From contig URGI01000001.1 of NCBI GenBank assembly GCA_900547315.1, positions 12,639 through 76,638 of the forward strand: a stretch of 64,000 bases of DNA, written 5' to 3'. The position numbers were made by a program, and so were the translations under genes. Below are positions 25,116 through 43,402 of the stretch, piece by piece. This stretch comes from an uncultured Eubacteriales bacterium. Its GTDB lineage: Bacteria; Bacillota; Clostridia; Oscillospirales; Oscillospiraceae. How positions within the stretch are numbered: the stretch's first letter is position 1; the number at the start of each line of letters is the position of its first letter. Below the pieces are notes generated by a model, which searched no databases, was not told the DNA's origin, and saw only the letters and a program-made list of their open reading frames with translations.

Positions 25116-26288
25116 TTATAAATTGTCCTGCGCCGAAAATACCGACTGCGCGAGCAACGCCGCGCCGCATACCGGCGTGTCATGCGCGGCATGGAACATC
25201 GGGTTGTGCCATAGGTAGGGCTTCTCTCCGGGGACGCCGGAGCCGAGAAAATAGAAGAAGGAGGGGACGCCCTCGCTCAGCAGCGAGAAATCCTCCGACG
25301 CCATGTTCACGGAGGGAACCTTTACGTTTTCCACCCCGAATACCGCGGCGCCCGCGTCCGACGCGGCCTTCAGCAGCGACTCGCTGTTGAAAACTCCGCG
25401 CGTGATCGGTATCAGCTCAAGCTCACAGGCGCAGCCGAATTCCTCCGCGGTGCCGTGCGCCATAAGCTCAACACGCTTGAGGATGCGCTCGCGCACGTCC
25501 TCTTCAAGACTGCGGATGTTGCCGGTTATCTCGGCGTCGTCGATCGTGGTGGTGAACGGCGTACCGGACTGGATGGAGCACACGGTCAGCACGGCGGACT
25601 CAAGTGGGCCGACATTGCGGCTTATGATAGTCTCAAGCGACATGACGAGGCTGGCGATGGCCACCGTCGGGTCGACATTTTTCTGCGGCGTGCTCGTATG
25701 GCCGCTTTTGCCGATGAACTTAATGCGGAAGCCATCTTTGAACGACATGAGCGGCCCGGCCTTGACGCCGACGGTGCCGACAGGCAGCTCCGGCAGATTG
25801 TGCAGCCCGAAAACGGCGCTGGGCTTGTACTGCGAAAAGACGTTGTGCTCAAGCATGTACTTTGCGCCCTTGAGCTTTTCCTCCGCCGGCTGGAACACAA
25901 AGAGCACGTTCGCGCGAAGCTCGTCCCGGTGCGCGCTCAGCAGCATCGCCGCGCCGAGCAGCCCCGCCGTATGGGTGTCGTGCCCGCAGCCGTGCATGAC
26001 TCCGGGCGTGAGGGATTTGTCCGGCCGGTCATATTCCTCGTGCTGCACGATAGCGTCGATGTCCGCGCGCAGCGCGATGGTCGCGTCCCCGCGGCCGCGG
26101 AGCAGCCCCACGACGCCGGTCTCAAGACCAAGGTCAAGTATCTCAATGCCGAGCTTCTCAAGCTGGGCGCGGATGATGGCGCTGGTGCGCTTTTCCTCAA
26201 AGCTCAGCTCAGGATGGGCGTGAAGGTCGGCAGTAATCGAATAAATCTGTTCGGAATAGTGTTTTTTTGCCTCTTCAAGAAGGTTCAA
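25116..26288 (-). CDS. M20/M20D family amidohydrolase (aminoacylase/hippurate-hydrolase-like; a possible N-carbamoyl or N-acyl amino acid amidohydrolase)
   Basis: 390-aa protein with the M20D metal-binding motifs (MHGCGHDTH, ...FQPAEE...). TTG start at 26288 after an AAAGGAG RBS. Divergent from the LacI-family regulator gene. Confidence 0.8.
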   Translation of the reverse strand: MNLLEEAKKHYSEQIYSITADLHAHPELSFEEKRTSAIIRAQLEKLGIEILDLGLETGVVGLLRGRGDATIALRADIDAIVQHEEYDRPDKSLTPGVMHGCGHDTHTAGLLGAAMLLSAHRDELRANVLFVFQPAEEKLKGAKYMLEHNVFSQYKPSAVFGLHNLPELPVGTVGVKAGPLMSFKDGFRIKFIGKSGHTSTPQKNVDPTVAIASLVMSLETIISRNVGPLESAVLTVCSIQSGTPFTTTIDDAEITGNIRSLEEDVRERILKRVELMAHGTAEEFGCACELELIPITRGVFNSESLLKAASDAGAAVFGVENVKVPSVNMASEDFSLLSEGVPSFFYFLGSGVPGEKPYLWHNPMFHAAHDTPVCGAALLAQSVFSAQDNL

Positions 26289-26514: not shown

Positions 26515-27570
26515 ATGAATGGTAGAAAAGTAAGCTATGCGACAATAAAAGATGTTGCAGAGCTGGCCGAAACGTCTGTGGCGACCGTATCGTATATTCT
26601 CAGCGGAAAGTCCGAAAAGAGCTTCCGACAGGATACGGTGGACAGAGTTATGGCGGCTGTCGAGGAGCTGAATTACAGCAAGAACGCAATCGCCTCCGGA
26701 CTGCGCGGCAATAAGCGCGGCATGATCTACATCATTATCCCTCAGTTTTCAAACATATACTACACGCGAGTGTGCGAAGCGATAGAAAATGTTCTGTTTG
26801 AAAACGGACTTGTCCCCGTGATATGCGACACGAGAGAAGACCCGGAGCGTGAAAAGCGCCTGCTTGAGCTTGCGATAAGCCAGCGCTGCGACGGGATAGT
26901 GCTTGGGCCTACGATCAGAGGCTGGGAGAATACGGCGGCGGTCAGAAGCCTGAATATCCCGCTTGTCGTGGTCGGGCGCGAGCTTGGCTCGCCCAATGAC
27001 CAGAAGTCCTACTATTATGTAGGGGACGACAGCTATCAGGCCGGCTACCTTGCCGGAAGCGTCCTCGCAAAGGGCGGACATGAATCCATCGGAGTTATCG
27101 ACTGGGGAAGCCAGATCGGCTCGGCAATTGACCGAAGCAACGGCTTCACGGCGGCGATAAAAAAGCATTGCCCCGGTGTGAAGCTCATGCATGCGTCAAG
27201 CATGATCGTTGATGTAGATACCGGATACCAGCTTACGAAGAGCATATTTGGCGATAAAATGCCCAATGCACTCTTTTACAGCTACCATGTACTGGCGCAG
27301 GGAGGCATAACCTACCTTCACGAGCATGGCCTGCGCATCCCTGAGGATGTGACGATCTCGATGGTCGGCACACCGTCGTGGGCGAAGCTGCTGGAATCGC
27401 CGTGCACGATGGTAAATCAAAATGAAGATTGGGTTGGATCAACGGCGGCGAAGATAATGCTCCGTCTTATAGACGGAGATACGTCGAGCCTGCTCATGTC
27501 GGAATACCGGCATGTGTGCCGCTGCCAGCTCGTTGAACACAGCGGCTTCAGAAAAGCCGCGTCAAATTAG
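26515..27570 (+). CDS. LacI-family transcriptional regulator (HTH plus periplasmic-binding-protein-like sugar/ligand domain)
   Basis: N-terminal HTH ATIKDVAELAETSVATVSYIL and a C-terminal PBP-like domain. Confidence 0.85.
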   Translation: MNGRKVSYATIKDVAELAETSVATVSYILSGKSEKSFRQDTVDRVMAAVEELNYSKNAIASGLRGNKRGMIYIIIPQFSNIYYTRVCEAIENVLFENGLVPVICDTREDPEREKRLLELAISQRCDGIVLGPTIRGWENTAAVRSLNIPLVVVGRELGSPNDQKSYYYVGDDSYQAGYLAGSVLAKGGHESIGVIDWGSQIGSAIDRSNGFTAAIKKHCPGVKLMHASSMIVDVDTGYQLTKSIFGDKMPNALFYSYHVLAQGGITYLHEHGLRIPEDVTISMVGTPSWAKLLESPCTMVNQNEDWVGSTAAKIMLRLIDGDTSSLLMSEYRHVCRCQLVEHSGFRKAASN

Positions 27571-27635: not shown

Positions 27636-27755
27636 TAGATTTAGTTAACTACTTCACCGGAAAGAACCGGTTTGTGCAATCTGAAAAAAGACCGTAGGGG
27701 AGAAAAGCCCCGGAAAAAGACATGATTTCTGAAAATTGTGTCTTAACTTTAGCAA

Positions 27756-27771
27756 AGTTAAACGATTAACT
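27756..27771 (+). promoter_or_regulatory. Candidate LacI-family operator, copy 3 (AGTTAAACGATTAACT), about 100 nt upstream of the carbamate kinase start
   Basis: 7 of 8 palindromic pairs around the central CG. Identical core to copy 2. Confidence 0.4.
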
Positions 27772-27873
27772 ATTTTTCACTCATTTCACCTTTTGTTTAA
27801 CCTGCACAGAAAAGTCAGCAAATTCAATTTATATATATCATGTTTGCTCAAAAAATGGAAGGACGGTAAGATT

Positions 27874-28812
27874 ATGAAAAAAGTTGTTATTGCTCTCGGT
27901 GGAAACGCTCTTCAGGCAAGAGGCGAGGCCGCGACCAGCGAAAACCAGCTTAAGAACGTCATGGTGACCGCAGAGCACATCGCCAAGATAATCGGCGAGG
28001 GCTACAAGGTCATCGTCAGCCACGGCAACGGCCCCCAGGTCGGCAGAATCCTGCTCCAGAACGAGGCCGGCAAGAGCGTGACTCCTCCGATGCCGATGGA
28101 TGTCTGCGGCGCAATGACTCAGGGCATGATCGGATATCACATCCAGCAGGGTCTCTCTCAGGTTCTCCGCGAGAACGGCATTGACAAGCCCGTCTGCACC
28201 CTCGTGACTCAGGTCGAGGTCGACAGCGCTGACCCCGCATTCCAGAATCCCACCAAGCCTGTCGGCGCTTTCTACACCGAGGAAGAGGCCATGCAGATAC
28301 AGGCCGAGAAGGGCTACGCGATGAAGAAGGACGCGAACCGCGGCTACCGCAGAGTCGTTCCCTCCCCCAAGCCCCAGAAGATCATCGAGATCGACACCAT
28401 AAAGACCCTCGTCGACGGCGATACCGTTGTTGTCGCAGCAGGCGGCGGCGGAATCCCCGTGTGCAAGAAGGACGGCAAGTACGTCGGTATCGAGGCTGTT
28501 ATAGACAAGGACTTCGCCTCCGAGGTTCTCGCAGAGCAGCTTGACGCGGACATCCTGATGATCCTCACTGAGGTCGAGAACGTCTGCCTCAACTTCGGCA
28601 AGCCCGACGAGAAGGTTCTGCGTGAAGTCACTGCAGATGAGATGGACAAGTACGCGGCAGAAGGCCACTTCGCTCCCGGCAGCATGCTCCCGAAGGTTCA
28701 GGCCGTCAGCAAGTTCGTACACTCCAAGCCCGGCAGAGTCGCAGTCATCACCTCTCTGGAGAACGCCGTCAACGGCATCACCGGTGTAAAGGGAACCATC
28801 ATCAAAGGCTAA
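27874..28812 (+). CDS. arcC: Carbamate kinase
   Basis: Start at MKKVVIALGGNAL (ATG at 27874, GGAAGGACGG RBS). Amino-acid-kinase fold motifs throughout (e.g. VVVAAGGGGIPV). 312 aa. Confidence 0.85.
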   Translation: MKKVVIALGGNALQARGEAATSENQLKNVMVTAEHIAKIIGEGYKVIVSHGNGPQVGRILLQNEAGKSVTPPMPMDVCGAMTQGMIGYHIQQGLSQVLRENGIDKPVCTLVTQVEVDSADPAFQNPTKPVGAFYTEEEAMQIQAEKGYAMKKDANRGYRRVVPSPKPQKIIEIDTIKTLVDGDTVVVAAGGGGIPVCKKDGKYVGIEAVIDKDFASEVLAEQLDADILMILTEVENVCLNFGKPDEKVLREVTADEMDKYAAEGHFAPGSMLPKVQAVSKFVHSKPGRVAVITSLENAVNGITGVKGTIIKG

Positions 28813-28846: not shown

Positions 28847-30004
28847 ATGCGTGAAGTTATTCCTGTAAAATGCTCCATCGTCCGCGGCGGCACCAGCAAG
28901 GGCATCTTCATTATGGAAAATGAACTGCCCCGTGATCCCGAACTGCGCGACAAGTATATTCTTGAGATATTCGGCAGCCCCGATGTCCGTCAGATAGACG
29001 GTCTCGGCGGTGCGGACGTCCTCACCAGCAAGCTTGCGATAATCGGCCCGTCCAGCAGAGAAGATGCGGACGTCGATTATACCTTCGGTCAGGTCAGCTT
29101 CGTCGAGCCAAAGATCGACTACAAGTCCAACTGCGGCAACATCTCCGCCGGCGTTGCACCCTTTGCGATAAACAACGGCATTGTCAAGGCTGTTGAGCCC
29201 TACACCACCGTCCGCATCCATCAGGTCAACACCGACACCATCATCAACGCCAAGGTCGAGGTTCGTGACGGCAAGGCCGCTGTTGACGGCGACTTCCATA
29301 TCGACGGTGTTCCCACTCCCGGCTCCACGATCGAGCTTGACTTCTCCGACAGCGTCGGCGGCATCACCGGCAAGCTCCTTCCGACCGATAACGTTGTTGA
29401 CACCATCGTGACCGACGACGGCAAGAGCTACGAGGTCTCCGTGGTCGACGCGGGCATCCCAACCGTGTTCATTGAGGCCAAGTCCCTCGACATGAGCGGC
29501 ATCGAGACTCCCCAGCAGATCGAGGGCAACGCGGCGCTTATGACCAAGATCGAAGAGATCCGCGGCCGCTGCGCGGTAAAGATGGGCTTCACCGACGATT
29601 ACAAGAACGCCGTTAAGGATTGCCCCTACGCTCCGTTCTTCGCCATCGTCTCTCCGAGCCAGAGCTACCACACCTTCGACGGCAAGGACGTCAAGGGTGA
29701 GGACATCGACATCGTCAGCCGCCTCGTCTTCATGCAGAAGATGCATAAGACCCACCCCGTGACCGGCACCGTGTGCATGTCCACCGCGGCCCGCATCCCC
29801 GGCAGCATCGTCAACCGCAATCTCTCCGAGCGCGGCAAGGCCGAGCACCGTATATGGATCGGCCACCCGGCAGGCGTTATCCCGGCGGTCTCCGTCCTCG
29901 ACAACGTTGACGGCGAGTACAAGCTCCGCACCGCTGCCATTCTCCGCACCGCACGCGTCATCATGGACGGCACCGTATACGTGCGCCGCTCCAGAGTAGA
30001 GTAA
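28847..30004 (+). CDS. PrpF/AcnD-accessory family isomerase (2-methylaconitate or 3-methylitaconate isomerase-like)
   Basis: 385-aa protein with N-terminal IPVKCSIVRGGTSKGIFI, the hallmark of the PrpF/Mii family. Confidence 0.8.
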   Translation: MREVIPVKCSIVRGGTSKGIFIMENELPRDPELRDKYILEIFGSPDVRQIDGLGGADVLTSKLAIIGPSSREDADVDYTFGQVSFVEPKIDYKSNCGNISAGVAPFAINNGIVKAVEPYTTVRIHQVNTDTIINAKVEVRDGKAAVDGDFHIDGVPTPGSTIELDFSDSVGGITGKLLPTDNVVDTIVTDDGKSYEVSVVDAGIPTVFIEAKSLDMSGIETPQQIEGNAALMTKIEEIRGRCAVKMGFTDDYKNAVKDCPYAPFFAIVSPSQSYHTFDGKDVKGEDIDIVSRLVFMQKMHKTHPVTGTVCMSTAARIPGSIVNRNLSERGKAEHRIWIGHPAGVIPAVSVLDNVDGEYKLRTAAILRTARVIMDGTVYVRRSRVE

Positions 30005-30059: not shown

Positions 30060-31448
30060 ATGAGCAAGTATTTAGCAGAGCAGATTTCTGAAGTAGTTGT
30101 CAACACCCATTTTGAGGATCTGCCCCAGTATGCAGTTGACAAAGCAAAGATGCTGACCCTCGACGTTCTGGCCTCTATGGTCGGTACCCGCAAGGTCATC
30201 TCCAGCGAAATCGCCCGCGATGTAGCGGCAGAGCTCGGCGGCCCGGAAGAGGCTTCCATCGTCGGCTACGGCAAGAAGGTTGCAGCACCCAACGCTGCAT
30301 TCGCAAATGCTATCCAGTGCTATGGTCTTGACTTCGTTGATGACCATAATGAATCCAACGCTCACCCCTCTCCCGTTACCTACCCCGTCAGCTTCGCACT
30401 CGCCGAGCAGCTCAAGCGCTCCGGTAAGGAATTCATCGAAGCCTGCGTTCTCGGTAACGAGATCGTCTGCCGTATGGGCAGCGCCTACCTCGGCGACATG
30501 TACACCCAGGGCTTCCATCCCACCAGCACCTGCGGCACCATGGGCGGTGTTGTCTCCGCTGCAAAGCTGATGAAGCTCGACGAGCAGAAGGTCTCCTACG
30601 CTCAGGGCATCGCCGGCTCCGCCGTTGCGGGTCTGATGGCATGGAACACCCAGGGCTCCTTCACCAAGCGTTACCAGGCCGGCCGTCCCTCCATGGACGT
30701 CATCGTTGCCGCACGCATGGCCGAGAAGGGCTTCAACGGACCTACCGACATCTTCGAGAGCCAGGACGGTCTGCTCCACGCATACTCCTACCAAGATCGC
30801 TACGACACCAACTGGATCACCAAGGATCTGGGCAAAGAGTGGATATTCGCCACCTCCAGCATCAAGGTTTACCCCTGCTGCCGTTACTCCGGCGGTCACC
30901 TCGACGCCTGCCTTGAGATCGTCCACAAGTATCATCCCGATCCCGCCAAGATCGCAAAGATCCACGTTCGCTCCTCCCTCCAGACCATGCACCTGCTGGC
31001 CGAGCCGCGCAAGTGGCATCCGGAAAACATCGTTGACCTGCAGTTCTCCATGCCTTACCAGGCAGCTGTCGCGTTCCTCAACGGCAAGTTCACTCCGGAC
31101 GAGCTGAATGTCGAGTACATCAAGAATCCGCTCATCCAGAAGATGATCGCCAACACCACCGTCGTCTGCGACGATGAGTTCGAGCGCCGTTATCCTGAGC
31201 ACTACTCCAGCGCTGTTACCATCACCATGGAAGACGGCACCGAGTACACCGCAGTTGTCGACGATCCTAAGGGCGACTGGAGAAATCCCGTTACCTACGA
31301 AGATGTCGAGAACAAGTTCCGTTACCTCGCCAATACCGTTTACGCTGATCCCGAGCGCACCGAGAAGATCATTGCTTTCGTCAAGGATCTTGAGAAGCAG
31401 CCCGACATGAGCGTTCTCATGGAGCTTGTAAACGACGAGGCCAAATAA
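30060..31448 (+). CDS. MmgE/PrpD family protein (2-methylcitrate dehydratase / cis-aconitate decarboxylase superfamily)
   Basis: 462-aa protein with the MmgE/PrpD architecture (N-terminal helical domain, conserved C-terminal region). Confidence 0.85.
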   Translation: MSKYLAEQISEVVVNTHFEDLPQYAVDKAKMLTLDVLASMVGTRKVISSEIARDVAAELGGPEEASIVGYGKKVAAPNAAFANAIQCYGLDFVDDHNESNAHPSPVTYPVSFALAEQLKRSGKEFIEACVLGNEIVCRMGSAYLGDMYTQGFHPTSTCGTMGGVVSAAKLMKLDEQKVSYAQGIAGSAVAGLMAWNTQGSFTKRYQAGRPSMDVIVAARMAEKGFNGPTDIFESQDGLLHAYSYQDRYDTNWITKDLGKEWIFATSSIKVYPCCRYSGGHLDACLEIVHKYHPDPAKIAKIHVRSSLQTMHLLAEPRKWHPENIVDLQFSMPYQAAVAFLNGKFTPDELNVEYIKNPLIQKMIANTTVVCDDEFERRYPEHYSSAVTITMEDGTEYTAVVDDPKGDWRNPVTYEDVENKFRYLANTVYADPERTEKIIAFVKDLEKQPDMSVLMELVNDEAK

Positions 31449-31479
31449 TTAAGCTTCGCAAGTGAGAGGAGATAAACAT

Positions 31480-32055
31480 ATGGGCGAAAGAAATGCCGAC
31501 TCTCGCGGGAAGAAGATAGTTTTCGTATCCAACTGCCTGCTCAACGCCAACAACAAGGTTCAGGAGTTTGCACGCTACCCCGGAATGTTTTTCGAGATAC
31601 TCACCACGCTCAACAGGTATGGCATCGGCGTCGAGCAGATGCCATGCCCGGAGACGCTGTACGCCGGAAACCAGCGCTGGTGGCACTCCCGCAATCTTTA
31701 CGATAATGCGGGCTTCAGAAGATTCTGCCGCGAGCTTGCCGAGCGGACGGTCGACTACATCGAGAACTACGGCATAGTAGGCTATCAGGTGGTCGGTATT
31801 CTGGTCTGCGACGGGTCCCCGACCTGCGGCTACTCCATCTCCAGCTATTACGAAAACGGCGGCGGTCATCCTGCCGAGCCGGTACGCAGCTTTAAAGAGC
31901 GCCCCGGCATATATACGGAGGAATTGCTCAAGGCGGTCGAGGCGCGGGGCGTGAAGCTCCCGCCGATATACGGCCTGCCGGTGGACGACAGAGATCGCAC
32001 CAACGAGCAGATAATCGCCGATTTTGACAGTTTCATTAATTCCAATCTCACCTAA
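31480..32055 (+). CDS. DUF523 family protein (TudS-like: three conserved Cys, [4Fe-4S]-dependent 2-thiouracil desulfidase family)
   Basis: IVFVSNCLL..., MPCPET and GSPTCGY match the three Cys-containing motifs of DUF523/TudS. Start at the ATG at 31480 with a GAGAGGAG RBS. Confidence 0.6.
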   Translation: MGERNADSRGKKIVFVSNCLLNANNKVQEFARYPGMFFEILTTLNRYGIGVEQMPCPETLYAGNQRWWHSRNLYDNAGFRRFCRELAERTVDYIENYGIVGYQVVGILVCDGSPTCGYSISSYYENGGGHPAEPVRSFKERPGIYTEELLKAVEARGVKLPPIYGLPVDDRDRTNEQIIADFDSFINSNLT

Positions 32056-32170: not shown

Positions 32171-33433
32171 ATGGGAATGACATTTGCACAGAAAGCTCTG
32201 GCAAGAGCCGCAGGCAAAGATTATGTTGATATAGGCGAAATCGTCATGGCGAACGTCGACGTGGCCATGATGGACGATATACTCGGCCCCAGAATCGAGA
32301 TCGCAGCCGGTTTGAAAGAACTGGGCGTTGACGTCTGGGACAAGTCCAAGGTCGTTGTCATAAGCGACCACTACACTCCTCCCTGCGAGATAAAGCAGGC
32401 TGAGGCCGTCCGCTTCACGCGCGACTGGTCCGAGGAGCACGAGGTGTCCTACTACGAGTACGCAGGACCGTGTCATCAGGTTCTGGCCGAGCGCTGCTAT
32501 GACCAGCCCGGCACCCTCGTCGTCGGCACCGACTCCCACACCTGCATGGCAGGCGCTTTCGGCGCGTTCGGCACCGGCATCGGCTCTACCGAGATGCTCG
32601 GCGTCGTCGCCACCGGCCAGATCTGGCTCAAGGTTCCCGAAAGCTTCCGCATTGAATGGAAAAACAAGCTCCCCGCGGGCGTATTTGCCAAGGACATGGT
32701 TCTCTATGACTGCGGCAAGATCGGCCACTCCGGAGCCACATATAAAGCACTTGAGTACTGCGGCGATATGATAAGCGCCCTGTCAATGGACGAGCGCATG
32801 GCCATCTCCAACATGGCCGTTGAGATGGGCGCGAAGGCCGGCTACATCCCGGCCGACGAAAAGACCCTCGAATACATCAAGGCGCACGGCGAGCTCAAGA
32901 ACTACGCGATGCTCTATCCCGACGCGGACGCCGTCTACGAGCGCAACTACGTGAACGACGCGGCGGCGCTTGTACCGCAGGTCGCCTGCCCGCACCACGT
33001 CGACAATGTCCACCCCGTCACCGAGGTGGAGGGCACCAAGCTCACCCAGGTCTACATCGGCTCCTGCACCGGCGGCAGAATTTCCGACCTGCGCACCGCA
33101 GCAAAGGTGCTCAAGGACAGGAAAGCGGCTCCCGGAATGCGCTTCCTCGTCTCCCCGGCCTCCAGAGAGGTCTACAAGATGGCGCTTAACGAAGGCATAC
33201 TCGATATCCTCACCGACGCCGGCGCGGTCATCGTCGCCCCGTCCTGCGGACTCTGCCTCGGCGCGCACACCGGCATACTCGCAGCCGGCGAGAGCTGCAT
33301 CTCCACCAGCAACCGCAACTTTATCGGACGTATGGGCAGCAAGAATGCGAACGTCTACCTCGGCTCTGCGGCAACCGTCGCAGCTTCCGCGATAGAGGGA
33401 CGTATAGCCGATCCAAGAAAGTATTTTGAATAA
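32171..33433 (+). CDS. Aconitase-family hydro-lyase large subunit, short LeuC-type (3-isopropylmalate / citramalate / dimethylmaleate dehydratase-like)
   Basis: 420-aa short-form LeuC with Fe-S ligand motifs GSCTGGR and APSCGLCLG. It is sited in a catabolic operon, not with leuAB. Confidence 0.8.
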   Translation: MGMTFAQKALARAAGKDYVDIGEIVMANVDVAMMDDILGPRIEIAAGLKELGVDVWDKSKVVVISDHYTPPCEIKQAEAVRFTRDWSEEHEVSYYEYAGPCHQVLAERCYDQPGTLVVGTDSHTCMAGAFGAFGTGIGSTEMLGVVATGQIWLKVPESFRIEWKNKLPAGVFAKDMVLYDCGKIGHSGATYKALEYCGDMISALSMDERMAISNMAVEMGAKAGYIPADEKTLEYIKAHGELKNYAMLYPDADAVYERNYVNDAAALVPQVACPHHVDNVHPVTEVEGTKLTQVYIGSCTGGRISDLRTAAKVLKDRKAAPGMRFLVSPASREVYKMALNEGILDILTDAGAVIVAPSCGLCLGAHTGILAAGESCISTSNRNFIGRMGSKNANVYLGSAATVAASAIEGRIADPRKYFE

Positions 33434-33451
33434 TCGGGAGGGAGAATAAAA

Positions 33452-33946
33452 ATGGATTCTGTAATCACCGGAAAGGTATGGAAATTCGGAGATGACATCA
33501 ATACCGACATAATATCTCCCGCCGAATACATGGACGCCAGCTACGGGGTTATCGGTAAGCACGCGATGGAGCGCGCGTTCCCCGGCTTCGCGGATGCTAT
33601 TGCACGGGGTGATATAATCGTTGCAGGTAAAAACTTCGGCTCCGGCTCCAGCCGCGAGACAGCGCAGATCGCTCTCATTTACGCGGGCGTCGGCGCGGTC
33701 ATTGCGAAGGACTTCGCCCGTATCTTCTTCAGAAACTGCATTAACGTCGGCCTGCCCGTTGTCAACTTTGCGGACACCGACAAGCTCAATCAGGGCGATG
33801 AGATACGCGTCAACTTCCTCTCCGGCGTGATCGAGGATCTCACCACCGGCGAGACCTATCACGGCAGCCGTCTGCCTGAAAACGTGCTTGCAATCGTGCA
33901 GGACGGCGGACTGAAGGAGCACCTGAAGAAAAGCCTCAAAAAATAA
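33452..33946 (+). CDS. Aconitase-family hydro-lyase small subunit, short LeuD-type
   Basis: 164-aa protein with N-terminal KFGDDINTDIISP and a GSSRE region typical of the LeuD swivel domain. Confidence 0.8.
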   Translation: MDSVITGKVWKFGDDINTDIISPAEYMDASYGVIGKHAMERAFPGFADAIARGDIIVAGKNFGSGSSRETAQIALIYAGVGAVIAKDFARIFFRNCINVGLPVVNFADTDKLNQGDEIRVNFLSGVIEDLTTGETYHGSRLPENVLAIVQDGGLKEHLKKSLKK

Positions 33947-33982: not shown

Positions 33983-35173
33983 ATGGCAACACTGAAGACA
34001 ACCTTTGCCGGAGTTTCCATGCCGAACCCGTTCATGCTCGCATCCGCGCCTCCCACGACCAACTGTGAGATGGTAGCCCGCAGCTTTGACGCCGGCTGGG
34101 GCGGCGCCGTGCTCAAGACCATGGCATATGATCTGAGAATGGCACGCAATGTAAACCCGCGCATAGCGGCCTATAAGGTTGGCAAGTCCATCCACGGCTT
34201 TACTAACTTCGAGCTCGGCAGCCCGAAGCCCATCTCCAAGTGGCTTGAGGACGCGCGCTGGCTGAAGGAACGCTTCCCCGAACACGCCGTGTTCGTCAGC
34301 CTTCTGCACACGGAAGGTCTCGTCGAGGAACAGTGGCGCGAAGTGACCAGAATGTTCAACGATGCCGGTATCGACGGCTTCGAGCTGAACTTCTCATGCT
34401 CCCACGGTATGGCGGAAGCGGGCGGCGGCGCTCAGGTCGGCGGCAACGAGGAGGCTATAAAGATGGTCACCAACTGGGTCAGATCCGAAACCAATCTCCC
34501 GGTTATGCCAAAGCTTCCCGCAATGGTTCCCAACATCGGCAGCAAGGCTCGCGCGGCTGAGGAAGCCGGCGCAGACGCCATAGCAACGATAAACACCCTC
34601 AATTCCATTCCCGGAATCGACATCTATAATTTCGTCCCGTATCCCACGGTCGACGGCAAGAGCGCATTTTCCGGCATGAGCGGCCGCGCGATAAAGCCCA
34701 TCGCTCTGCGCACCGTCGCTCAGGTCGCCAAGGCCGTCAACATCCCGGTCTCCGGTATCGGCGGCATATACACATGGCAGGATGCGGTAGAGTTCATCCT
34801 CGCGGGCGCGTCCTCTCTGCAGGTCTGTTCCGCGGTCATGGAGAACGGCTACAAGTGCGTCGAGGCGATGAACAAGGGTCTCCTTAAGTATATGGAGGAG
34901 ATGGGCTTTGAGACGATAAGCGACTTCGTCGGCAAGGCGCTGCCCAACATTACCGCGCACAACAATCTTTCTAGAACCTATAAGCTCCACGCCGAGTGCG
35001 ACGAGACCAAGTGCATCGGCTGCTCCCGCTGCGTGGCGGTCTGCAGCGACAGCGCTTACAGCGCAATCAGCATGGACGGCAAGCACGCTTCCGTTGACGC
35101 GGCGAAGTGCGACGGCTGCGGCCTGTGCACTCAGGTCTGCCCGGCCGGAGCGCTCAGCATGAAGGTCAGATAA
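33983..35173 (+). CDS. PreA-like dihydropyrimidine/dihydroorotate dehydrogenase-family flavoprotein with a C-terminal 2x[4Fe-4S] ferredoxin domain
   Basis: 396-aa protein: TIM-barrel DHOD/DHPD-like core plus C-terminal CIGCSRCVAVC...CDGCGLCTQVCP. No PreT-like partner is encoded nearby. Confidence 0.8.
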   Translation: MATLKTTFAGVSMPNPFMLASAPPTTNCEMVARSFDAGWGGAVLKTMAYDLRMARNVNPRIAAYKVGKSIHGFTNFELGSPKPISKWLEDARWLKERFPEHAVFVSLLHTEGLVEEQWREVTRMFNDAGIDGFELNFSCSHGMAEAGGGAQVGGNEEAIKMVTNWVRSETNLPVMPKLPAMVPNIGSKARAAEEAGADAIATINTLNSIPGIDIYNFVPYPTVDGKSAFSGMSGRAIKPIALRTVAQVAKAVNIPVSGIGGIYTWQDAVEFILAGASSLQVCSAVMENGYKCVEAMNKGLLKYMEEMGFETISDFVGKALPNITAHNNLSRTYKLHAECDETKCIGCSRCVAVCSDSAYSAISMDGKHASVDAAKCDGCGLCTQVCPAGALSMKVR

Positions 35174-35194: not shown

Positions 35195-36580
35195 GTGAAC
35201 GATATCAACATTATAAACGGTACGATTGTTCGCCCTGAGGGCTGCGAGAAGGCCGATATCGGCATTCGCGGCGGAAAGATAGTCTCAGTGAACAAGCCCG
35301 GCAGCCTGACCGAAGCGGCTGAAAAAACGATAGATGCAAGCGGCCTGTATGTGTTTCCGGGGATGATAGATACCCATGTGCACATCCGCGGCGGTATCCT
35401 CTCCCACCGTGAGAGCTTTGCCTCCGGCACTCAGGCTGCCGCATCCGGCGGCATCACTACGATCATGGAGATGCCGATAGCGAACCCGCCCGCCTCCACG
35501 CCGGAAGCCTTCGATGCGCGGCGCAAGGAAATAGGCGAGCAGGCATATGTCGACTTCTGCATGTACGGCGGCGCCGGAAGCGATAACCTCGACCAGATAG
35601 AGCTGCTGACGAGCCACGGCGCGGCGGCATATAAGACCTTCCTGATGCCTCCCGTGCCCGGCCGCGAGAAGGAATTTTACGGCCTTTGCAGCGAGACTAC
35701 AGAACAGCTCACGGAGGTCATGGAGCGCGTGGCCGCGGTCGGCGGCGTGCTCTGCTGCCACAGCGAGCTGAACGAATACGTTGCTCCCTATGCCGCAAAG
35801 CTTATGGCCGAAGGCCGCAACGGCGTAAAGGCATGGGGCGAGTCGAGACCGATCGAGGCTGAGACGGAAGCCGTAAAGCGCGTCATTGCCGCCGCCGAAA
35901 AGACCGGCTGCAAGGCAGTTATCTGCCATGTCAGCGCACCGGAGACGGTCGAGCTTATCCAGCAGGCGAAGAAGCGCGGCGTGGATATACACGGCGAGAC
36001 CTGCCCGCAGTACATCCTGTATAACTGCGAGAATGCGGAAGCCGCCGGTGTGTTTGCCCGCATGAAGCCGCCGCTCCGCACTCCGGAGACCATGGAGAAG
36101 CTCATGCAGTGCTACGCCGACGGGCTCCTTGAGATAACCGGCAGCGACCATGCGCCGTACACCTACGAGGAGAAGACCCGCAGCGGCGAAGATATATGGC
36201 ATTGCTTCGACGGACTTCCCGGCCTTGAGCTGAGCCTGCGCCTTCTGCTGAACGCGGCATCCGACGGCAGACTCACCTATGAGGAGATCGCCTGCAACAC
36301 GGCCGAGAACCCCGCTGCGCTGTTTGGTATCGACGGCGCGAAGGGCAGGATCGAAGCCGGACGCGACGCCGACCTTGTGCTCGTAGAGCGACTGGACAAG
36401 CCGGAGACGCTGCATAAAGAGCAGCTCGTCACGAAGAGCCGCGAGAGCGCGGTGCTCTACGACGGCACGCAGATGACCCACCGCATCAAAGAAACCCTCG
36501 TGAGAGGAATCACCGTCTTCAAAGACGGCACCATTACCGTAAGCCATGGCTTCGGCCAGCTTATTATACCAAAATCCTAA
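35195..36580 (+). CDS. Cyclic amidohydrolase of the dihydropyrimidinase/hydantoinase/allantoinase family
   Basis: 461-aa protein with the metal-ligand motif DTHVHIR, the carbamylated-Lys region AAYKTFLM and the C-terminal Asp region GSDHAP. GTG start after a GGGGAGG RBS. Confidence 0.8.
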   Translation: MNDINIINGTIVRPEGCEKADIGIRGGKIVSVNKPGSLTEAAEKTIDASGLYVFPGMIDTHVHIRGGILSHRESFASGTQAAASGGITTIMEMPIANPPASTPEAFDARRKEIGEQAYVDFCMYGGAGSDNLDQIELLTSHGAAAYKTFLMPPVPGREKEFYGLCSETTEQLTEVMERVAAVGGVLCCHSELNEYVAPYAAKLMAEGRNGVKAWGESRPIEAETEAVKRVIAAAEKTGCKAVICHVSAPETVELIQQAKKRGVDIHGETCPQYILYNCENAEAAGVFARMKPPLRTPETMEKLMQCYADGLLEITGSDHAPYTYEEKTRSGEDIWHCFDGLPGLELSLRLLLNAASDGRLTYEEIACNTAENPAALFGIDGAKGRIEAGRDADLVLVERLDKPETLHKEQLVTKSRESAVLYDGTQMTHRIKETLVRGITVFKDGTITVSHGFGQLIIPKS

Positions 36581-36603: not shown

Positions 36604-37590
36604 ATGAGAACAGACATGCGCGGAAGAGATTTTGTTACCCTTCAGGACTTCACCGGTGAAGAGATCCAGACCATTCTGGACGTAGCTTTCCAGCTGAAGC
36701 GCGAGAACGCTATCGGTCAGGCTCACGAGCTGCTCAAGAACAAGACCCTCGGTATGCTCTTTGCACAGCCCTCCACCCGTACCCGCGTCTCCTTTGAGAC
36801 TGGTATGACTCAGCTTGGCGGCCACGCTCAGTATTACAGCGAGGACTCCATGCAGCGCAAGAATAAGGAAACTTGGGCCGACACCGGTCTGGTTCTTTCC
36901 CGTTACCTCAACGCTCTGATGGTTCGTCTGTACGACCTTGAGGAGTACGGCATGGCTCGTGACATCATGAACGAGATCCGCAAGAACACCACTATCCCCG
37001 TCATCAACGGCCTCGACGACAAAGAGCATCCCTGCCAGTGCATGGGCGACCTGATGGTCATTCAGGAGAAGCTCGGCGCAGGCTGGAAGAAGAAAAAGAT
37101 CGTTATGAGCTGGGCATACTCCGACCGCGTCAAGTCCCCCGGCGTTCCTCAGGCAATGCTGACCGCATGCAGCCTGCTCGGCGCAGACATCACCCTCGCT
37201 TACCCGAAGGGATACGAACTTGACGACCAGTACATGGAGTTCGCTCAGAACGCCGCAAAGTCCTCCGGCTCCGTCATCAGCGTTACCAACGACATCTACG
37301 AAGCCTGCACCGGCGCAGACGTCATCTACGCAAAGAGCTGGGGCAGCACCCACGGTATGCCCAAGGACGAGGATAAGGAGTACCGCAAGCAGTTCGCCAA
37401 GGATTGGTGCATCTCCGACAAGCACTTCGAGCTTGCAAATCCTGTTTCCTACTACATGCATCCGCTGCCCGCAGCACGCCACGAGGAAGTCACCGACGAA
37501 GTCATCGACGGACCGCACTCCATCGTTTACGATCAGGCCGAGAACCGTCTGCACGCTCAGAAGGCAGTCCTCGCTCTGCTCATGAAGTAA
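36604..37590 (+). CDS. Carbamoyltransferase of the ATC/OTC family with divergent second-substrate motifs (substrate unknown)
   Basis: Carbamoyl-phosphate motifs STRTR and HPCQ are present. The positions equivalent to OTC SMG and HCLP read SWG and HPLP. No arcA or arcD is in the window. Confidence 0.8.
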   Translation: MRTDMRGRDFVTLQDFTGEEIQTILDVAFQLKRENAIGQAHELLKNKTLGMLFAQPSTRTRVSFETGMTQLGGHAQYYSEDSMQRKNKETWADTGLVLSRYLNALMVRLYDLEEYGMARDIMNEIRKNTTIPVINGLDDKEHPCQCMGDLMVIQEKLGAGWKKKKIVMSWAYSDRVKSPGVPQAMLTACSLLGADITLAYPKGYELDDQYMEFAQNAAKSSGSVISVTNDIYEACTGADVIYAKSWGSTHGMPKDEDKEYRKQFAKDWCISDKHFELANPVSYYMHPLPAARHEEVTDEVIDGPHSIVYDQAENRLHAQKAVLALLMK

Positions 37591-37938: not shown

Positions 37939-37992
37939 ATAGCATATACCAGCAGAAACCTATCATGGCATAAAGTGACAGGAGGAAACCAA

Positions 37993-39483
37993 ATGGATAG
38001 TAAAATCAAAATAATGGGTTATGCGGTCCATGGCTTGTACTTCGTTGGTATGCTGGCTATCGGTTATTTTTGCAACAAGAAGTATGCAAACAATGTTGAT
38101 GGCTTCTTTGCCGGCGGCAAGAACCTTGGCCCATGGGTCTTCGCACTTACCTACGGTTCAACTTATCTCAGCTCTTCGACGTTTGTCGGCAACACCGCCA
38201 CGGCTTACTCCGGCGGTCTTGCCTACCTTTTCATGCCCCTTGCGCAGATGCTCTTACTCCCCCTCGGACTTATCTTCTTCTCCCACATCCTGCGTAAGAT
38301 GAGTCAGTCATTGGATGTTGTCACTATCCCTGCATATCTTGAAAAACGTTTCAAGAGTCCCGCTGCCGGAATGATAACCTCCCTCATTATCGTCATTTTC
38401 TTCATTCCCTATCTCGTTGGCATAGTCAAGGCATCGGCGCTTTCGCTGGGTGCTCTTCTTGGCGTTGAGTACAAAATCGGTGTTCTCGTTATCGCGTTCA
38501 TCAGTTTTGTTTATCTCATGTTCGGCGGCTATATGGCTCGCTGCTACACTGACGTGGTTCAGGGTGTGATGATGGTCGTCGGTATGATGGCGGTTGTTAT
38601 TGCCGGCTTCTTCATTGTCGGCGGACCGAGCGCCATTACCGAAGGCGTGAAGGCAGCCGATCCCGCGCTCCTTGAGACCCCCGGTCCTAAGGGCTGGAGC
38701 GCACTGTTCCTCTATTCCACTGTTTTTGCAATAGCCCCGTGGGGACTTCCCACTCTCGTTCAGACCAACTTCACCATAGGCAACAGAAAGCATGTTTACA
38801 CCGCCGCTATCGTTCTGTCCATTTGGATATCCTGTGTCCTCTTCGGCTCCATGATAATCGGCAACATGGGCCGCGCCTTCTACGGCAACGCTCTTGTTGA
38901 TAATCCTGACTCCCTGTTCCCGACGCTGGTTATTGACTGGTTCCCGAACCTCTTCGGTGCTATAATTATCGTTGCGGTCATCTGCGCGGCAATGTCTACA
39001 ATTGACGGCACGCTGATGAACTCCGGCGCCGCTGTCGGCCTTGATATATACAAGCGTTTTATCAAGAAGGACGCGAGCGACAAGAAGGTCATTACGATCT
39101 CCAACATAGCAATGGGCGTTATCACGCTTGTCGTTATAATCTGGGCGTTTGATCCTCCCGCAATGGTGCTCACCCTCACAAGCTACGCGTTCTCTCTGGT
39201 CGCTGCCGGACTTATCGTTCCCACCTATGCGGGTCTTTACTGCAAGAAGCTCACCAGCGCAGGCTGCGTGGTTGGTATTCTTGCCGGTCTTGGCTTCTGC
39301 CTGCTGTGGTACATTACCGGTACGCCGCTTGGGATCCCTCCGTTCGTTGTCGGTATGGTCGCCTCCGCGATCGCTCTCTTCGGCGTCAGCAAGTTCACCA
39401 AGCCCCTGCCTCAGGAGTTTATTGACGATCTGTTCGCAAAGCTCAAGAACAACGCATACGTTACGGAAACTGTGGAAAAGTAA
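37993..39483 (+). CDS. Sodium:solute symporter (SSS) family transporter
   Basis: About 496-aa protein with 13-14 predicted TM helices and the SSS-family pattern. ATG at 37993 after an AGGAGGA RBS. Confidence 0.8.
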   Translation: MDSKIKIMGYAVHGLYFVGMLAIGYFCNKKYANNVDGFFAGGKNLGPWVFALTYGSTYLSSSTFVGNTATAYSGGLAYLFMPLAQMLLLPLGLIFFSHILRKMSQSLDVVTIPAYLEKRFKSPAAGMITSLIIVIFFIPYLVGIVKASALSLGALLGVEYKIGVLVIAFISFVYLMFGGYMARCYTDVVQGVMMVVGMMAVVIAGFFIVGGPSAITEGVKAADPALLETPGPKGWSALFLYSTVFAIAPWGLPTLVQTNFTIGNRKHVYTAAIVLSIWISCVLFGSMIIGNMGRAFYGNALVDNPDSLFPTLVIDWFPNLFGAIIIVAVICAAMSTIDGTLMNSGAAVGLDIYKRFIKKDASDKKVITISNIAMGVITLVVIIWAFDPPAMVLTLTSYAFSLVAAGLIVPTYAGLYCKKLTSAGCVVGILAGLGFCLLWYITGTPLGIPPFVVGMVASAIALFGVSKFTKPLPQEFIDDLFAKLKNNAYVTETVEK

Positions 39484-39607: not shown

Positions 39608-41257
39608 ATGAAAAAATACAATCTTGACTTAAGCGGCTACAATGTGCCGCATGATATGCTGCCTACCAAACCGGAAGAGCGCAACTGGAACATTTACAGC
39701 TTCTTCGCTCTCTGGATCGGCATGGATATCGGTATCCCCACTTACATGCTCGCTTCTGGACTTATTGAGGGCGGCATGAACCTCAAGTGGGCCATGATTA
39801 CCATTTTGCTTGCGAATATAATCATTGCATTCCCCATCATGCTCAACGGCCATGCCGGTGCGAAGTATGGTATTCCTTCCACCGTTTATTGGCGCTCCGC
39901 GTTCGGCTTCAACGGCGCAAGCGTCGCTGCGGTTCTCCGCGGCATCGTGGCTGCCGGCTGGTGCGGCATCCAGTTCTGGATCGGCGGCAACGCGCTGAAC
40001 GTTGCGCTGTCCATCCTCATCCCCGCGTGGGGCAACTGGGCCTTGGGCAAATGGGTTTGCTTTGTAGTGTTCCTTCTGCTGAACCTCTATATACTTATCA
40101 ACGGACTTGGTGCGATAAAGAAGATGGAACATCTCTGCGCACCCATGCTCATCATCTGGCTGATCGTCATGCTCATCTGGGCGCGTACCACCGCGGGCAG
40201 CTGGGGACCGATGGTCAACGCCAAGATGACCTTCGCAACCACCGCGGAGTTCGTCGCTTTCTTCGTCGTCAGCCTCAACTCCAACATCAGCTACTGGTGC
40301 TCCATGCCCCTTACGGTCACTGACTTCACCAAGGCGGCAAAGGATCAGCGCAGTCAGGAAGTTGGCCAGCTGCTCGGCATACCCACCGGTATGTTCCTGC
40401 TCGCTCTCGTCGGCGCTCTGGTCAGCTCCTGCACCATCGTTATCTTCGGACATGTCATCACCGACCCCGTTGCTCTCACCAGCATGATCGGCCATCCTGC
40501 GCTGATCGTCGGCATGATGCTCTTCCTCATCATCGCAACTCTTACCACGAACGTCGCCGCAAACGCCCTTACCCCGGCGGTTGCAATCGTTCACCTCACC
40601 AACGGCAAGCTGAACTTCAAGTGGGCTGCTGTCGTTCTCTGCGCCATCGGCGTCGCAATTCGTCCTTGGGTGCTCATCAACGACATGGGTCTTTACATGA
40701 ACTTCTTCCTCAACGGCGGCGGCGCTCTGCTCGGCCCCGTTGTCGGGGTGACGATCTGCCACTACTTCTTCGTCTGCCGCACCGAGCTTGACGTTAGAAG
40801 CCTTTATGTTCCAGAAGGCGAGTCGATGTTCCTGAACATCAAGAAGTACAACAAGCCCACCTACATAATCATCTGGGCGATGTCGGCTATTATGCTTCTT
40901 ATCGCGCAGCTGGCTCCCGCATCCTGGCAGACCGCAACCTGCACTTTGGGCTGCTCCATGCGCTTCTCCATGAACGCCATGGCCATAATCTGCATTGCGC
41001 TGGGCTATCTGGTCTTCCGCAAGAGAGAAGGCGGCATCAACTCCCTGAGCTACCTCACCCTTGCGATAAGCTTTGTCATCATCTTCCTCGGCCTGTGGGT
41101 TCCCGTAGCGCACTGGCTGTATGACGCGTCCTTCATCGTCGGCACTCTGCTTGGCCTGGGCATCTACGTCCTGCTCATGCGCGTGTGCGACAAGGACTTC
41201 ATGGTCAAGAAAGCCGCCGAGCACAAGGCAGCCAAGGCTGAAGAGGCAAACGCCTGA
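39608..41257 (+). CDS. NCS1 family permease (nucleobase-cation symporter-1: cytosine/uracil/allantoin/hydantoin-type)
   Basis: 549-aa 12-TM protein with the NCS1 N-terminal pattern (ERNWNIYSFFALWIGMDIGIPTYMLASGLI). GGGAGAT RBS. Confidence 0.8.
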   Translation: MKKYNLDLSGYNVPHDMLPTKPEERNWNIYSFFALWIGMDIGIPTYMLASGLIEGGMNLKWAMITILLANIIIAFPIMLNGHAGAKYGIPSTVYWRSAFGFNGASVAAVLRGIVAAGWCGIQFWIGGNALNVALSILIPAWGNWALGKWVCFVVFLLLNLYILINGLGAIKKMEHLCAPMLIIWLIVMLIWARTTAGSWGPMVNAKMTFATTAEFVAFFVVSLNSNISYWCSMPLTVTDFTKAAKDQRSQEVGQLLGIPTGMFLLALVGALVSSCTIVIFGHVITDPVALTSMIGHPALIVGMMLFLIIATLTTNVAANALTPAVAIVHLTNGKLNFKWAAVVLCAIGVAIRPWVLINDMGLYMNFFLNGGGALLGPVVGVTICHYFFVCRTELDVRSLYVPEGESMFLNIKKYNKPTYIIIWAMSAIMLLIAQLAPASWQTATCTLGCSMRFSMNAMAIICIALGYLVFRKREGGINSLSYLTLAISFVIIFLGLWVPVAHWLYDASFIVGTLLGLGIYVLLMRVCDKDFMVKKAAEHKAAKAEEANA

Positions 41258-41280: not shown

Positions 41281-42105
41281 ATGAGAAACGTAACTATCAG
41301 CGTCATCCAGCTTGAAAACAAGCTCTTTGATAAGAATGCGAACCTTCTCAAGGCCGACGGACTCATCCGTCAGGCCGCGGCAAAGGGCGCAAAAATGATA
41401 TGCCTGCCCGAACTTTTTGTCACGGGCTACAACCTCAACGCCTTCGGCGACAGGATATATGAGCTTGGCGAAGGGCTGACCGGCCCCACCATCACTCATA
41501 TGCGCGCTCTGGCAAAGGAGCTTGGCGTGTACATAATAGCGCCCATAGCCATGCAGATGCGCACGACCCGCCCGCTGGAGAACAACGCCGTCGTTATCGA
41601 CGACGAGGGCGAGGTCATCGGCACCTACAGCAAAAACCATCTCTTCGGCGACGAGCCGAAATACTTCACCGCCAACGGTGAATACCCGGTGTTTGACACC
41701 AAATACGGCAAGATCGGCATAATGATCTGCTGCGATAACAACTTCCCCGAACCCGCGCGCATCCTTGCGCTCGGCGGCGCGGAGCTGATATTCATGCCCG
41801 CGGCATGGCGCGTACAGGAAGCGGATCTGTGGAAGCTCCTCATCTCCTCGCACGCCTGCGAGAACAATGTGTTCATCGCCGCAGCCAATGTCTTCAGCCG
41901 TATGGACGATCTGTTCCTTTTCGGACACAGCAAGGTCGTCGATCCCAGAGGCAGAGTTCTGCGCGAATCCGAGACGGAGGGAGACGATGTGCTCGTTGAG
42001 ACCATCGATCTCGATTCCGTGTACGAGCATCGCGCCTGCATGCCCAGCCTCAAGGATCGCCACCCCGAAACCTACGATGCGTTCATCGAACCGGTGAACG
42101 TGTAA
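41281..42105 (+). CDS. Carbon-nitrogen hydrolase family amidase (nitrilase superfamily branch that includes N-carbamoyl-amino-acid amidohydrolases, beta-ureidopropionase and omega-amidase)
   Basis: Catalytic triad context: E in LPELF, K in YSKNHLF, C in MICCDNNFPE. Confidence 0.8.
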   Translation: MRNVTISVIQLENKLFDKNANLLKADGLIRQAAAKGAKMICLPELFVTGYNLNAFGDRIYELGEGLTGPTITHMRALAKELGVYIIAPIAMQMRTTRPLENNAVVIDDEGEVIGTYSKNHLFGDEPKYFTANGEYPVFDTKYGKIGIMICCDNNFPEPARILALGGAELIFMPAAWRVQEADLWKLLISSHACENNVFIAAANVFSRMDDLFLFGHSKVVDPRGRVLRESETEGDDVLVETIDLDSVYEHRACMPSLKDRHPETYDAFIEPVNV

Positions 42106-42192
42106 GCACAGCGAAAGCGGGCGGTGCGCAAATCATTTGCCGCGCCGCCTGCAAATTAAGCCTTTGGCTTTATTATAATGGAGGAAAATAAA

Positions 42193-43383: not shown

Positions 43384-43402
43384 TTTTCGGGAGGTAAGAA
43401 TA

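Follow-up and report, generated by a model that had tools for sequence, protein, structure and literature searches.

Among described systems, the closest to the gene analysed here is TudS, a desulfidase of thiouracil and 4-thio-UMP (DUF523, PF04463; PDB 6Z92/6Z96), whose cluster ligands are Cys10, Cys43 and Cys104 and whose catalytic residues are Glu45, Ser101 and Ser103 (PMC10611767). TudS binds 4-thio compounds specifically, with no specific binding of 2-thiouracil or 2-thiouridine (PMC10611767), and in published data the native P. putida enzyme did not support growth on 2-thiouracil. A [4Fe-5S] species that forms with substrate has been seen in TudS. A second relative, RudS, is a fusion of TudS with DUF1722 that removes s4U modification from tRNA and relies on the same arrangement of a [4Fe-4S] cluster on three cysteines together with a Glu and a Ser (PMC11417400). 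Here we compare with these enzymes a TudS-like protein encoded at 31480..32055 on the plus strand of a 64,000-nucleotide stretch of DNA from an uncultured Eubacteriales bacterium of the Oscillospiraceae (GenBank assembly GCA_900547315.1, contig URGI01000001.1, positions 12,639 to 76,638 of the forward strand). This whole stretch, hereafter the window, is 99% identical to the human-gut Clostridiales metagenome-assembled genome (MAG) UMGS1216.

Within the window, the gene is part of an island that spans about 25.1 to 44.3 kb and has housekeeping genes on either side. Judged from its sequence, the encoded protein is a distant paralogue of TudS that has preserved the constellation of catalytic residues, and its family consistently travels with genes for pyrimidine uptake, salvage or breakdown in many anaerobes. 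We give an about even chance to the proposal that the protein is a non-redox desulfidase, which would exchange C=S for C=O at a [4Fe-4S] cluster and thereby feed thiolated pyrimidines into the pyrimidine route of its host.

Identification of the TudS-like gene and its conserved residues

In the window's list of open reading frames (ORFs), the frame extends over 31462..32055 (plus strand). Its true start is almost certainly the ATG at 31480, because a Shine-Dalgarno sequence, GAGAGGAG, lies 8 nt upstream and because the N-termini of 27 homologues align with the Met encoded there. Counted from this codon, the product has 191 amino acids, in agreement with an earlier note on this DNA that had been made from the sequence alone and had placed the gene at 31480-32055. 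The same note had set the gene between an MmgE/PrpD-family gene (30060-31448, PrpD-like in the following) and LeuC/LeuD-like genes (32171-33946), and this is indeed its position, 31 nt after the former and 115 nt before the latter. We found 233 homologues with E-values down to 1e-127, and an exhaustive profile search returned 1009 cluster representatives (50% identity) at E<=1e-3, 540 of them at E<=1e-10. A chance ORF is ruled out by this strong family conservation. The name given to some homologues by the Joint Genome Institute describes a secreted protein; we rejected this description since the N-terminus MGERNADSRGKK, judged by eye, is unlike a signal peptide. No canonical DUF523 gene was found in the window, and the TudS-like gene is its sole member of either family.

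The three Cys motifs named in the earlier note are all present. SNCLL contributes C19 (nt 31534-36), MPCPET contributes C56 and E58 (nt 31645-53), and GSPTCGY contributes S113, T115 and C116 (nt 31816-27); the codon of a further cysteine, C83, is found at 31726-31728. Invariant across 28 aligned sequences are C19, C56-P57-E58, C83, C110 and S113-P114-x-C116-G117; at position 115 the aligned relatives have either Thr or Ser. In a wider set of 129 full-length representatives, S113 is present in all, C56 in 127/129, E58 in 126/129, C19 in 123/129 and C116 in 109/129. C110 is limited to the CD3072 clade, to which the window protein belongs. About 20 representatives have replaced C116, the presumed third ligand, and C83 and R66 are conserved superfamily-wide (representatives P0241-P0390). 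Two distant members, P0352 and P0378, are fused to MFS transporter domains.

Relation to TudS

The earlier note had identified the protein as a DUF523/TudS member. In the Pfam sense this identification does not hold, as the match to PF04463 reaches 13.7 bits against a gathering score of 34.7 (E 0.065) and covers residues 101-151, the C-terminal third of the protein. Motif equivalence and membership in a TudS-related family are what remain of it: the protein passes the cut-off of NF045597, 'TudS_rel_CD3072' (133.6 vs 130 bits; residues 11-164 on profile positions 2-142 of 148), and we therefore refer to it as a CD3072-family, TudS-related putative [4Fe-4S] desulfidase with the residue signature C19, C56-P-E58, C83, C110 and S113-P-T115-C116. 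Homologues bear the NCBI name 'CD3072 family TudS-related putative desulfidase', and many carry a precomputed match to PF27735 (2-thiour_desulf_put), which is 'weak' wherever it is graded.

For a direct comparison of profiles, canonical DUF523 proteins were fetched with a consensus query and aligned. Alignment of the two families by hhalign (probability 9%, 41 columns) places VFVSNCLLN on ILVSaCLLG and MPCPE on PvCPE, and a local hidden Markov model search, at a few bits, adds a second colinear segment with SP[TS]CG on SPSCG. Both matches are weak and were used solely as evidence on motif register. In this register, C19, C56 and C116 align with the canonical motifs that hold the TudS cluster ligands, an equivalence at motif level, and the counterparts of the catalytic residues are kept as well, with E58 and S113 invariant and Thr or Ser at position 115; their spacing to the cysteines is that of canonical DUF523. 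The protein also resembles TudS in fold and in the order of its motifs: the first Cys follows strand 1, Cys-Pro-Glu follows strand 2 and Ser-Pro-Ser/Thr-Cys-Gly follows strand 3. Furthermore, the distant members P0373 and P0379 match PF04463 over profile positions 1-132 (E 1e-4 to 1e-5) and so bridge the two families.

Like TudS, the TudS-like protein is small, stands alone and is tied to pyrimidine recycling. The two differ in that their identity is about 15%, that TudS has LLGxxxRYDG and a GGLPTPRPP loop where the window family has LLNxNxK and no such loop, that an insertion of about 45 residues with R66 and C83 belongs to the TudS-like family, and that C110 is particular to its CD3072 clade. 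RudS is set apart by its DUF1722 domain, its light-responsive operon and its tRNA substrate, whereas the context of the TudS-like protein is the uptake and catabolism of free bases.

Genomic context across anaerobes

To describe this context, we scanned one genome per species with the TudS-like protein as seed and compared the resulting 80 loci by tblastn and ORF clustering. The TudS-like gene stands beside orthologues of the island's PreA-like gene, its PrpD-like gene or both in 26/80 loci, usually with an amidohydrolase as well. The hosts of these 26 loci are Oscillospiraceae, Negativicutes (Sporomusa), Marispirochaeta, Tepidanaerobacteraceae and Synergistaceae, and the decarbamoylase is either an M20 carbamoylase-family amidase or an ornithine carbamoyltransferase (OTCase) with carbamate kinase. 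PrpF and LeuCD are found together mainly in a subgroup of the Oscillospiraceae. Other versions of the cluster add a Crp regulator, an NMT1-type ABC transporter, LarA, Ldh_2 or a uridine-phosphorylase-like gene, the last of these in several clusters. In the Marispirochaeta locus (L005:5312-9828), a YjjI-like glycyl-radical enzyme, its activase, an esterase and a LarA homologue are encoded directly upstream of the TudS-like, PreA, amidohydrolase, PrpD and M20 genes. A sulfonate pathway was considered for the variant with LarA, Ldh_2 and an iron-containing alcohol dehydrogenase (Fe-ADH) and rejected, as the nearest models, sulfolactate dehydrogenase and sulfoacetaldehyde reductase, gave scores far under their cut-offs.

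The family also occurs away from PrpD-like genes. In Papillibacter cinnamivorans (L073) and UMGS108 (L077), the TudS-like gene is part of a Pyd-type cluster that lacks the PrpD-like gene and consists of an ABC transporter, an amidohydrolase, a PydA-like reductase, a gamma-aminobutyrate (GABA)/beta-alanine-type aminotransferase III and Fe-ADH, with an M20 amidase in L073. In L077 (3723-4837), a canonical DUF523/TudS gene (E 2e-43) starts at the stop codon of the CD3072-family gene; this tandem, located inside the NMT1-ABC/Pyd cluster of an uncultured Ruminococcaceae MAG, is the sole one of its kind among about 140 loci. Seven loci pair the TudS-like gene with a cytosine deaminase (470 bits vs a cut-off of 438) and an NCS1 permease. 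Elsewhere, the gene keeps company with ABC or MFS transporters of pyrimidine type, as in L086, where it lies within an NMT1-type ABC transporter operon with nothing else there, or, in another lineage, adjoins purL. Among cultured organisms, Sporomusa sp. KB1 has a PrpD-type cluster and Papillibacter cinnamivorans DSM 12816 a Pyd-type one, and Anaerovorax odorimutans, Lentihominibacter faecis and Hominibacterium faecale have a family member in different surroundings. In a neighbour-joining tree, the window protein groups in a clade of PrpD-type and LarA-type contexts, and a separate clade takes in the Pyd, CodA and other contexts.

In the loci seeded with the TudS family (L001-L085), the PrpD-like gene and the pair of aminotransferase III and Fe-ADH never occur together. 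This mutual exclusion suggests that disposal of the amino-acid product falls to the PrpD-like enzyme, and the two sets of genes look like alternative means of disposal for an amino acid derived from the ring.

Loci seeded with the PrpD-like protein

The reverse scan started from the PrpD-like protein, whose orthologues share 64-82% identity across Oscillospiraceae, Negativicutes, Spirochaetota, Synergistaceae and Tepidanaerobacteraceae (alignment A3), which suggests a strongly constrained and probably horizontally spread enzyme. Seeding a metagenome scan with these orthologues gave 63 loci. The TudS-like gene is present in 37 of them, and most of the remainder are fragments. One lineage (L101, L103, L113 and L138), however, has the entire cluster of PreA, amidohydrolase, M20, PrpD, ABC transporter, Crp and uridine-phosphorylase genes without the TudS-like gene, whereas in the sister locus L106 an EamA transporter, the TudS-like gene and a carbon-nitrogen (CN) hydrolase are appended to the cluster. 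This comparison indicates that the TudS-like gene is a common addition that the cluster can do without, and it often brings a transporter of its own. The three genes, present in L106 and missing from the four other loci, behave as a sub-module.

A diverged cluster, found in L136 (1094-14487) and L137, has a PrpD-like protein of 58-59% identity and no TudS-like gene. It holds genes for an aminotransferase, a CN hydrolase, a distant dihydroorotate dehydrogenase/PreA-like protein, an OTCase-like protein, LeuCD, PrpF and an HMGL-like protein, and it is the one exception in which both a PrpD-like protein and an aminotransferase are encoded. It also suggests that the core of PrpD, OTCase, LeuCD and PrpF predates its association with the TudS-like gene.

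These results bear on the earlier note's argument that the position of the gene indicates a sulfur-bearing pathway substrate. A feeder role for such a substrate is plausible in view of the TudS motifs and the pyrimidine contexts; a core step, however, the TudS-like gene is not.

A putative desulfidase and the alternatives to it

Because the pyrimidine theme is consistent and the TudS catalytic residues are kept, hydrolytic exchange of C=S for C=O is the simplest reading. Cluster binding, chemistry, substrate and order of steps would then be as follows. C19, C56 and C116 would hold the [4Fe-4S] cluster, whose free iron would bind a pyrimidine base through its thiocarbonyl sulfur; water would be activated by E58 and S113/T115, so that C=S becomes C=O and sulfide leaves. 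The thiolated base, imported by the NCS1 or SSF transporter of the island, would be desulfurated to the oxo-pyrimidine in an accessory feeder step. The PreA-like enzyme would reduce the oxo-pyrimidine and the cyclic amidohydrolase would open the reduced ring, after which the carbamoyltransferase would decarbamoylate the product, with ATP gained via carbamate kinase. The carbon skeleton would finally pass to the PrpD-like enzyme, the PrpF-family enzyme akin to 3-methylitaconate isomerase (Mii-like), the LeuCD-like enzyme, the CoA-transferase and the lyase. The substrate is possibly a 2-thio compound (2-thiouracil, 2-thiocytosine-derived bases or 5-substituted 2-thiouracils), a specificity made attractive by the 4-thio specificity of TudS, the tandem in L077 and the link with cytosine deaminase.

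Several observations weigh against a desulfidase. Sequence support for homology to TudS is weak, as the Pfam score (13.7 bits) and the hhalign probability (9%) indicate; searches of PDB sequences by phmmer and profile hmmsearch, run with the window protein, alignment A1 and P0101, failed to recover TudS, and Foldseek gave no match for the TudS-like protein. (Matches to nitrile-hydratase beta in the PDB sequence searches, at E about 0.4-0.9, were dismissed as noise.) Compared with TudS, the stretch from the CPE to the SPxC motif is longer by about 45 residues. The fourth cysteine, C83, is present in 115/129 representatives and is thus commoner than C116 (109/129), and its conservation makes the free iron site needed by TudS chemistry uncertain: going by the residues, the cluster could be fully or differently ligated via C83, which would not suit that chemistry. 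The tandem with canonical TudS in L077 implies that the two activities are not identical and the two genes not redundant. Thiolated bases are minor nutrients. Finally, a literature search on the CD3072 family found nothing, and no characterised member.

Some of these same features could be accounted for if the Fe-S cluster served as a Lewis acid in a sulfur-free, non-redox reaction (dehydration, deamination, isomerisation or removal of an exocyclic group) on a pyrimidine or a pathway intermediate. The missed Pfam threshold for TudS, the large insertion with R66 (129/129 representatives) and C83 (115/129), both absent from TudS, the non-identical function implied by the adjoining canonical TudS gene in L077, and the frequent pairing with the CN hydrolase and EamA transporter as a mobile sub-module would all fit such an enzyme. 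Nevertheless, the full TudS constellation of three Cys, Glu and Ser-x-Ser/Thr is kept across a very wide family, and no standard step of Pyd catabolism or cytosine salvage is missing that would call for an enzyme of this kind. We regard this explanation as rather unlikely, although worth keeping in view. A role as a small Fe-S electron carrier or redox partner of the PreA-like reductase, in which the protein would stand in for PreT, seems to us very improbable. No PreT homologue lies within 10 kb on the window's contig, and the five invariant cysteines of the CD3072 clade could ligate a complete cluster; on the other hand, the family co-occurs with PreT-like genes in L003, L009-L013, L021, L105, L111 and others, it is found without any PreA-like gene (beside cytosine deaminase, in ABC operons, next to purL and in MFS fusions), and the non-ligand residues E58 and S113 are conserved like the cysteines. 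The third alternative, put forward in the earlier note, makes desulfuration the opening step of a dedicated pathway: 5-carboxymethyl-2-thiouracil from (m)cm5s2U tRNA would be converted to uracil-5-acetate, which would be reduced, ring-opened and decarbamoylated to 2-(aminomethyl)succinate and then pass through itaconate, citraconate and citramalate to pyruvate and acetyl-CoA. We consider this chain improbable as a whole.

What speaks for the chain is mainly its lower half, where the enzyme families do fit. They suit branched unsaturated dicarboxylates of five or six carbons, including a Mii-like isomerase (420 bits), a PrpD-like protein whose nearest relatives include the itaconate-forming cis-aconitate decarboxylase, and LeuD/DmdB-family, family III CoA-transferase and HMG-CoA-lyase-type proteins. 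E. barkeri Mii also accepts itaconate, and the PrpD family includes CadA (PMC4720413). The carbamoyltransferase is nearer to OTCase and putrescine carbamoyltransferase (PTCase), which act on R-CH2-NH2 amines, than to aspartate carbamoyltransferase. The PreA-like protein of the island is 37-39% identical, and its amidohydrolase 29% identical, to the canonical Pyd counterparts, the island proteins forming a separate orthologous group, and this divergence suggests a modified pyrimidine. The separation of PrpD-like from aminotransferase III and Fe-ADH in the TudS-family-seeded loci (though L136/L137 carry both a PrpD-like protein and an aminotransferase), the uridine phosphorylase of sister clusters, the placement of the window protein in its own clade tied to the PrpD-type context, and a TudS literature that leaves 2-thio bases without a dedicated enzyme point the same way. 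Other points weaken the chain. Nothing identifies 5-carboxymethyl-2-thiouracil or any other tRNA-derived base as the substrate, a literature search on 5-carboxymethyluracil catabolism found nothing, and the compound is scarce, yet the island occurs in anaerobes of gut, sediment and digester. A closely related, complete cluster does without the desulfidase-like gene, and the family of this gene also occurs in contexts without PrpD-type chemistry (Pyd, CodA/NCS1, transporter-only and purL). PrpF and LeuCD are missing from many PrpD-type clusters, Mii natively acts on a C6 acid, and we know of no ammonia-lyase activity in the PrpD family.

Returning to the desulfidase proposal, a bolder version of it may be stated as a speculation, to which we attach little probability. 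The CD3072 family would be the 2-thiopyrimidine-specific counterpart of TudS, with the PrpD-associated clade serving 5-substituted 2-thiouracils from tRNA wobble positions. The island would be a dedicated, ATP-yielding pathway for carboxyalkyl-uracils, running through carbamoyl phosphate, a novel C-N lyase of the PrpD family and intermediates of the itaconate/citraconate type to pyruvate and acetyl-CoA.

The island and known catabolic pathways

The island opens with an M20-family amidohydrolase gene on the minus strand (25116..26288; TIGR01891, 303 bits vs a cut-off of 153.75), divergent from the gene of a LacI-family regulator (26515..27570, plus strand, as are all genes that follow). The amidohydrolase is a possible hydrolytic decarbamoylase or deacylase, and homologues 53-62% identical to it are present in related islands; the regulator is kept in the Oscillospiraceae versions of the island. 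Next are a carbamate kinase (27736..28812; TIGR00746 arcC, 438 bits vs 358), the true start of which is probably later than 27736 because the family match begins at residue 48, and a PrpF-family isomerase (28847..30004). The isomerase is nearest to E. barkeri's 3-methylitaconate delta-isomerase (3g7k_A, E 6e-125, 420 bits) and does not reach NCBIfam's cut-off for either PrpF or oxalomesaconate tautomerase. The MmgE/PrpD-family protein (30060..31448) is not PrpD proper; its nearest solved relatives are iminodisuccinate (IDS) epimerase and cis-aconitate decarboxylase.

Downstream of the TudS-like gene are the large subunit of a LeuC/HacA-type aconitase-family hydro-lyase (32171..33433) and a LeuD/DmdB-family small subunit (33452..33946; TIGR02087, 180 bits vs 109). 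They are followed by a PreA-type dihydropyrimidine dehydrogenase subunit with a DHO_dh domain and two [4Fe-4S] sites (33983..35173; NF006183, 448 vs 335 bits) and by a cyclic amidohydrolase (35195..36580), which is nearest to allantoinase, ErtD and dihydroorotase. The latter stays under all equivalog cut-offs, with 261 vs 393 bits on the dihydropyrimidinase model TIGR02033 and, as its best score, 347.7 vs 357.85 bits on allantoinase. An OTCase/PTCase-like carbamoyltransferase (36604..37590) passes TIGR00658 marginally, at 281.6 bits against 280.85. From the PrpF-like gene through the carbamoyltransferase gene, the gaps between genes measure 18-115 nt. The remaining genes encode a sodium:solute symporter (SSF; 37975..39483), an NCS1 nucleobase/allantoin-type permease (39608..41257), a CN hydrolase of amidase or N-carbamoyl amidase type (41281..42105), a family III CoA-transferase of dicarboxylate type (42178..43383) and an HMG-CoA-lyase-type acyl-CoA lyase (43391..44314, start approximate; NF004283, 278.6 bits vs 246). 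As the CN hydrolase co-occurs with M20 or OTCase genes in related loci, it is not simply an alternative decarbamoylase.

With reductive pyrimidine catabolism (Pyd/PreAT), the island shares a PreA-type reductase above the equivalog cut-off, a cyclic amidohydrolase, decarbamoylation and a nucleobase permease, and some relatives of the TudS-like gene are themselves located in canonical Pyd clusters with aminotransferase and Fe-ADH. The island differs in that its amidohydrolase is allantoinase/dihydroorotase-like instead of a dihydropyrimidinase, that decarbamoylation by carbamoyltransferase and carbamate kinase would conserve ATP, and that, in the TudS-family-seeded loci, a PrpD-like protein, with or without Mii-like and LeuCD-like proteins, replaces the aminotransferase and reductase. 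No aminotransferase III/Fe-ADH route for the disposal of a beta-amino acid was found in the window's island.

Two further pathways offer partial parallels. The lower part of the nicotinate fermentation of E. barkeri, with 3-methylitaconate isomerase (Mii) and dimethylmaleate hydratase (DmdAB), resembles the island in the 420-bit match of the PrpF-like protein to Mii and in the LeuD/DmdB family of the small subunit. The island, however, has no mutase, enamidase or dimethylmalate lyase; its cleavage step would use a CoA-transferase and an HMG-CoA-lyase-type enzyme, and its carbon skeleton would derive from a ureide, not from a pyridine. The reductive uric acid pathway (YgeW carbamoyltransferase, YqeA carbamate kinase and the PydA homologue UacX) likewise uses a PydA-family reductase together with cyclic amidohydrolases and a pair of carbamoyltransferase and carbamate kinase, on an N-heterocycle other than uracil (PMC12507026). 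Here the difference is that the island has no SsnA, XdhD, YgeX or YgfK-type genes and that its carbamoyltransferase scores far under the YgeW models. A uric-acid pathway of YgeW type was accordingly rejected for the island, the SsnA, XdhD and YgeX domain types not being seen and the YgeW-model scores being low. Since PydA homologues and the pair of carbamoyltransferase and carbamate kinase are reused elsewhere in this way, the island is best read as a new variation on the reductive catabolism of N-heterocycles, to which a TudS-like feeder enzyme is joined.

The identity of the protein itself is not new, as NCBIfam and Pfam already label it ("TudS-related putative desulfidase"). What appears new is the context, in which a PreA-like protein, an allantoinase-like amidohydrolase, a decarbamoylase and a PrpD-family protein conserved at 64-82% recur across several anaerobic phyla; a literature search found no description of a PrpD-type island. 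In the window, this recurrent module is extended by carbamate kinase, a Mii-like isomerase, LeuCD, a CoA-transferase and a lyase. Should the module degrade a modified pyrimidine, it would add a new branch to the anaerobic catabolism of N-heterocycles in gut bacteria, and the TudS-like protein would provide a first function for a family of about 1000 clusters at 50% identity. The L077 tandem, together with the lack of 2-thio specificity in TudS, also raises the question of which enzyme recycles 2-thiolated bases.

Other features of the window

Promoter and terminator scans stayed at background level, with no convincing internal terminator, and an Rfam search of the window and of four related loci turned up no riboswitch. 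A GC-rich 9-bp hairpin at 37658-37682, about 70 nt past the carbamoyltransferase gene and within the 384-nt gap before the SSF gene, may mark an operon boundary. Outside the island, ORFs of more than 1200 codons overlap on both strands, at 15794-19423 (plus) and 15764-19468 (minus); for the one on the plus strand, neither Pfam nor NCBIfam gave a match.

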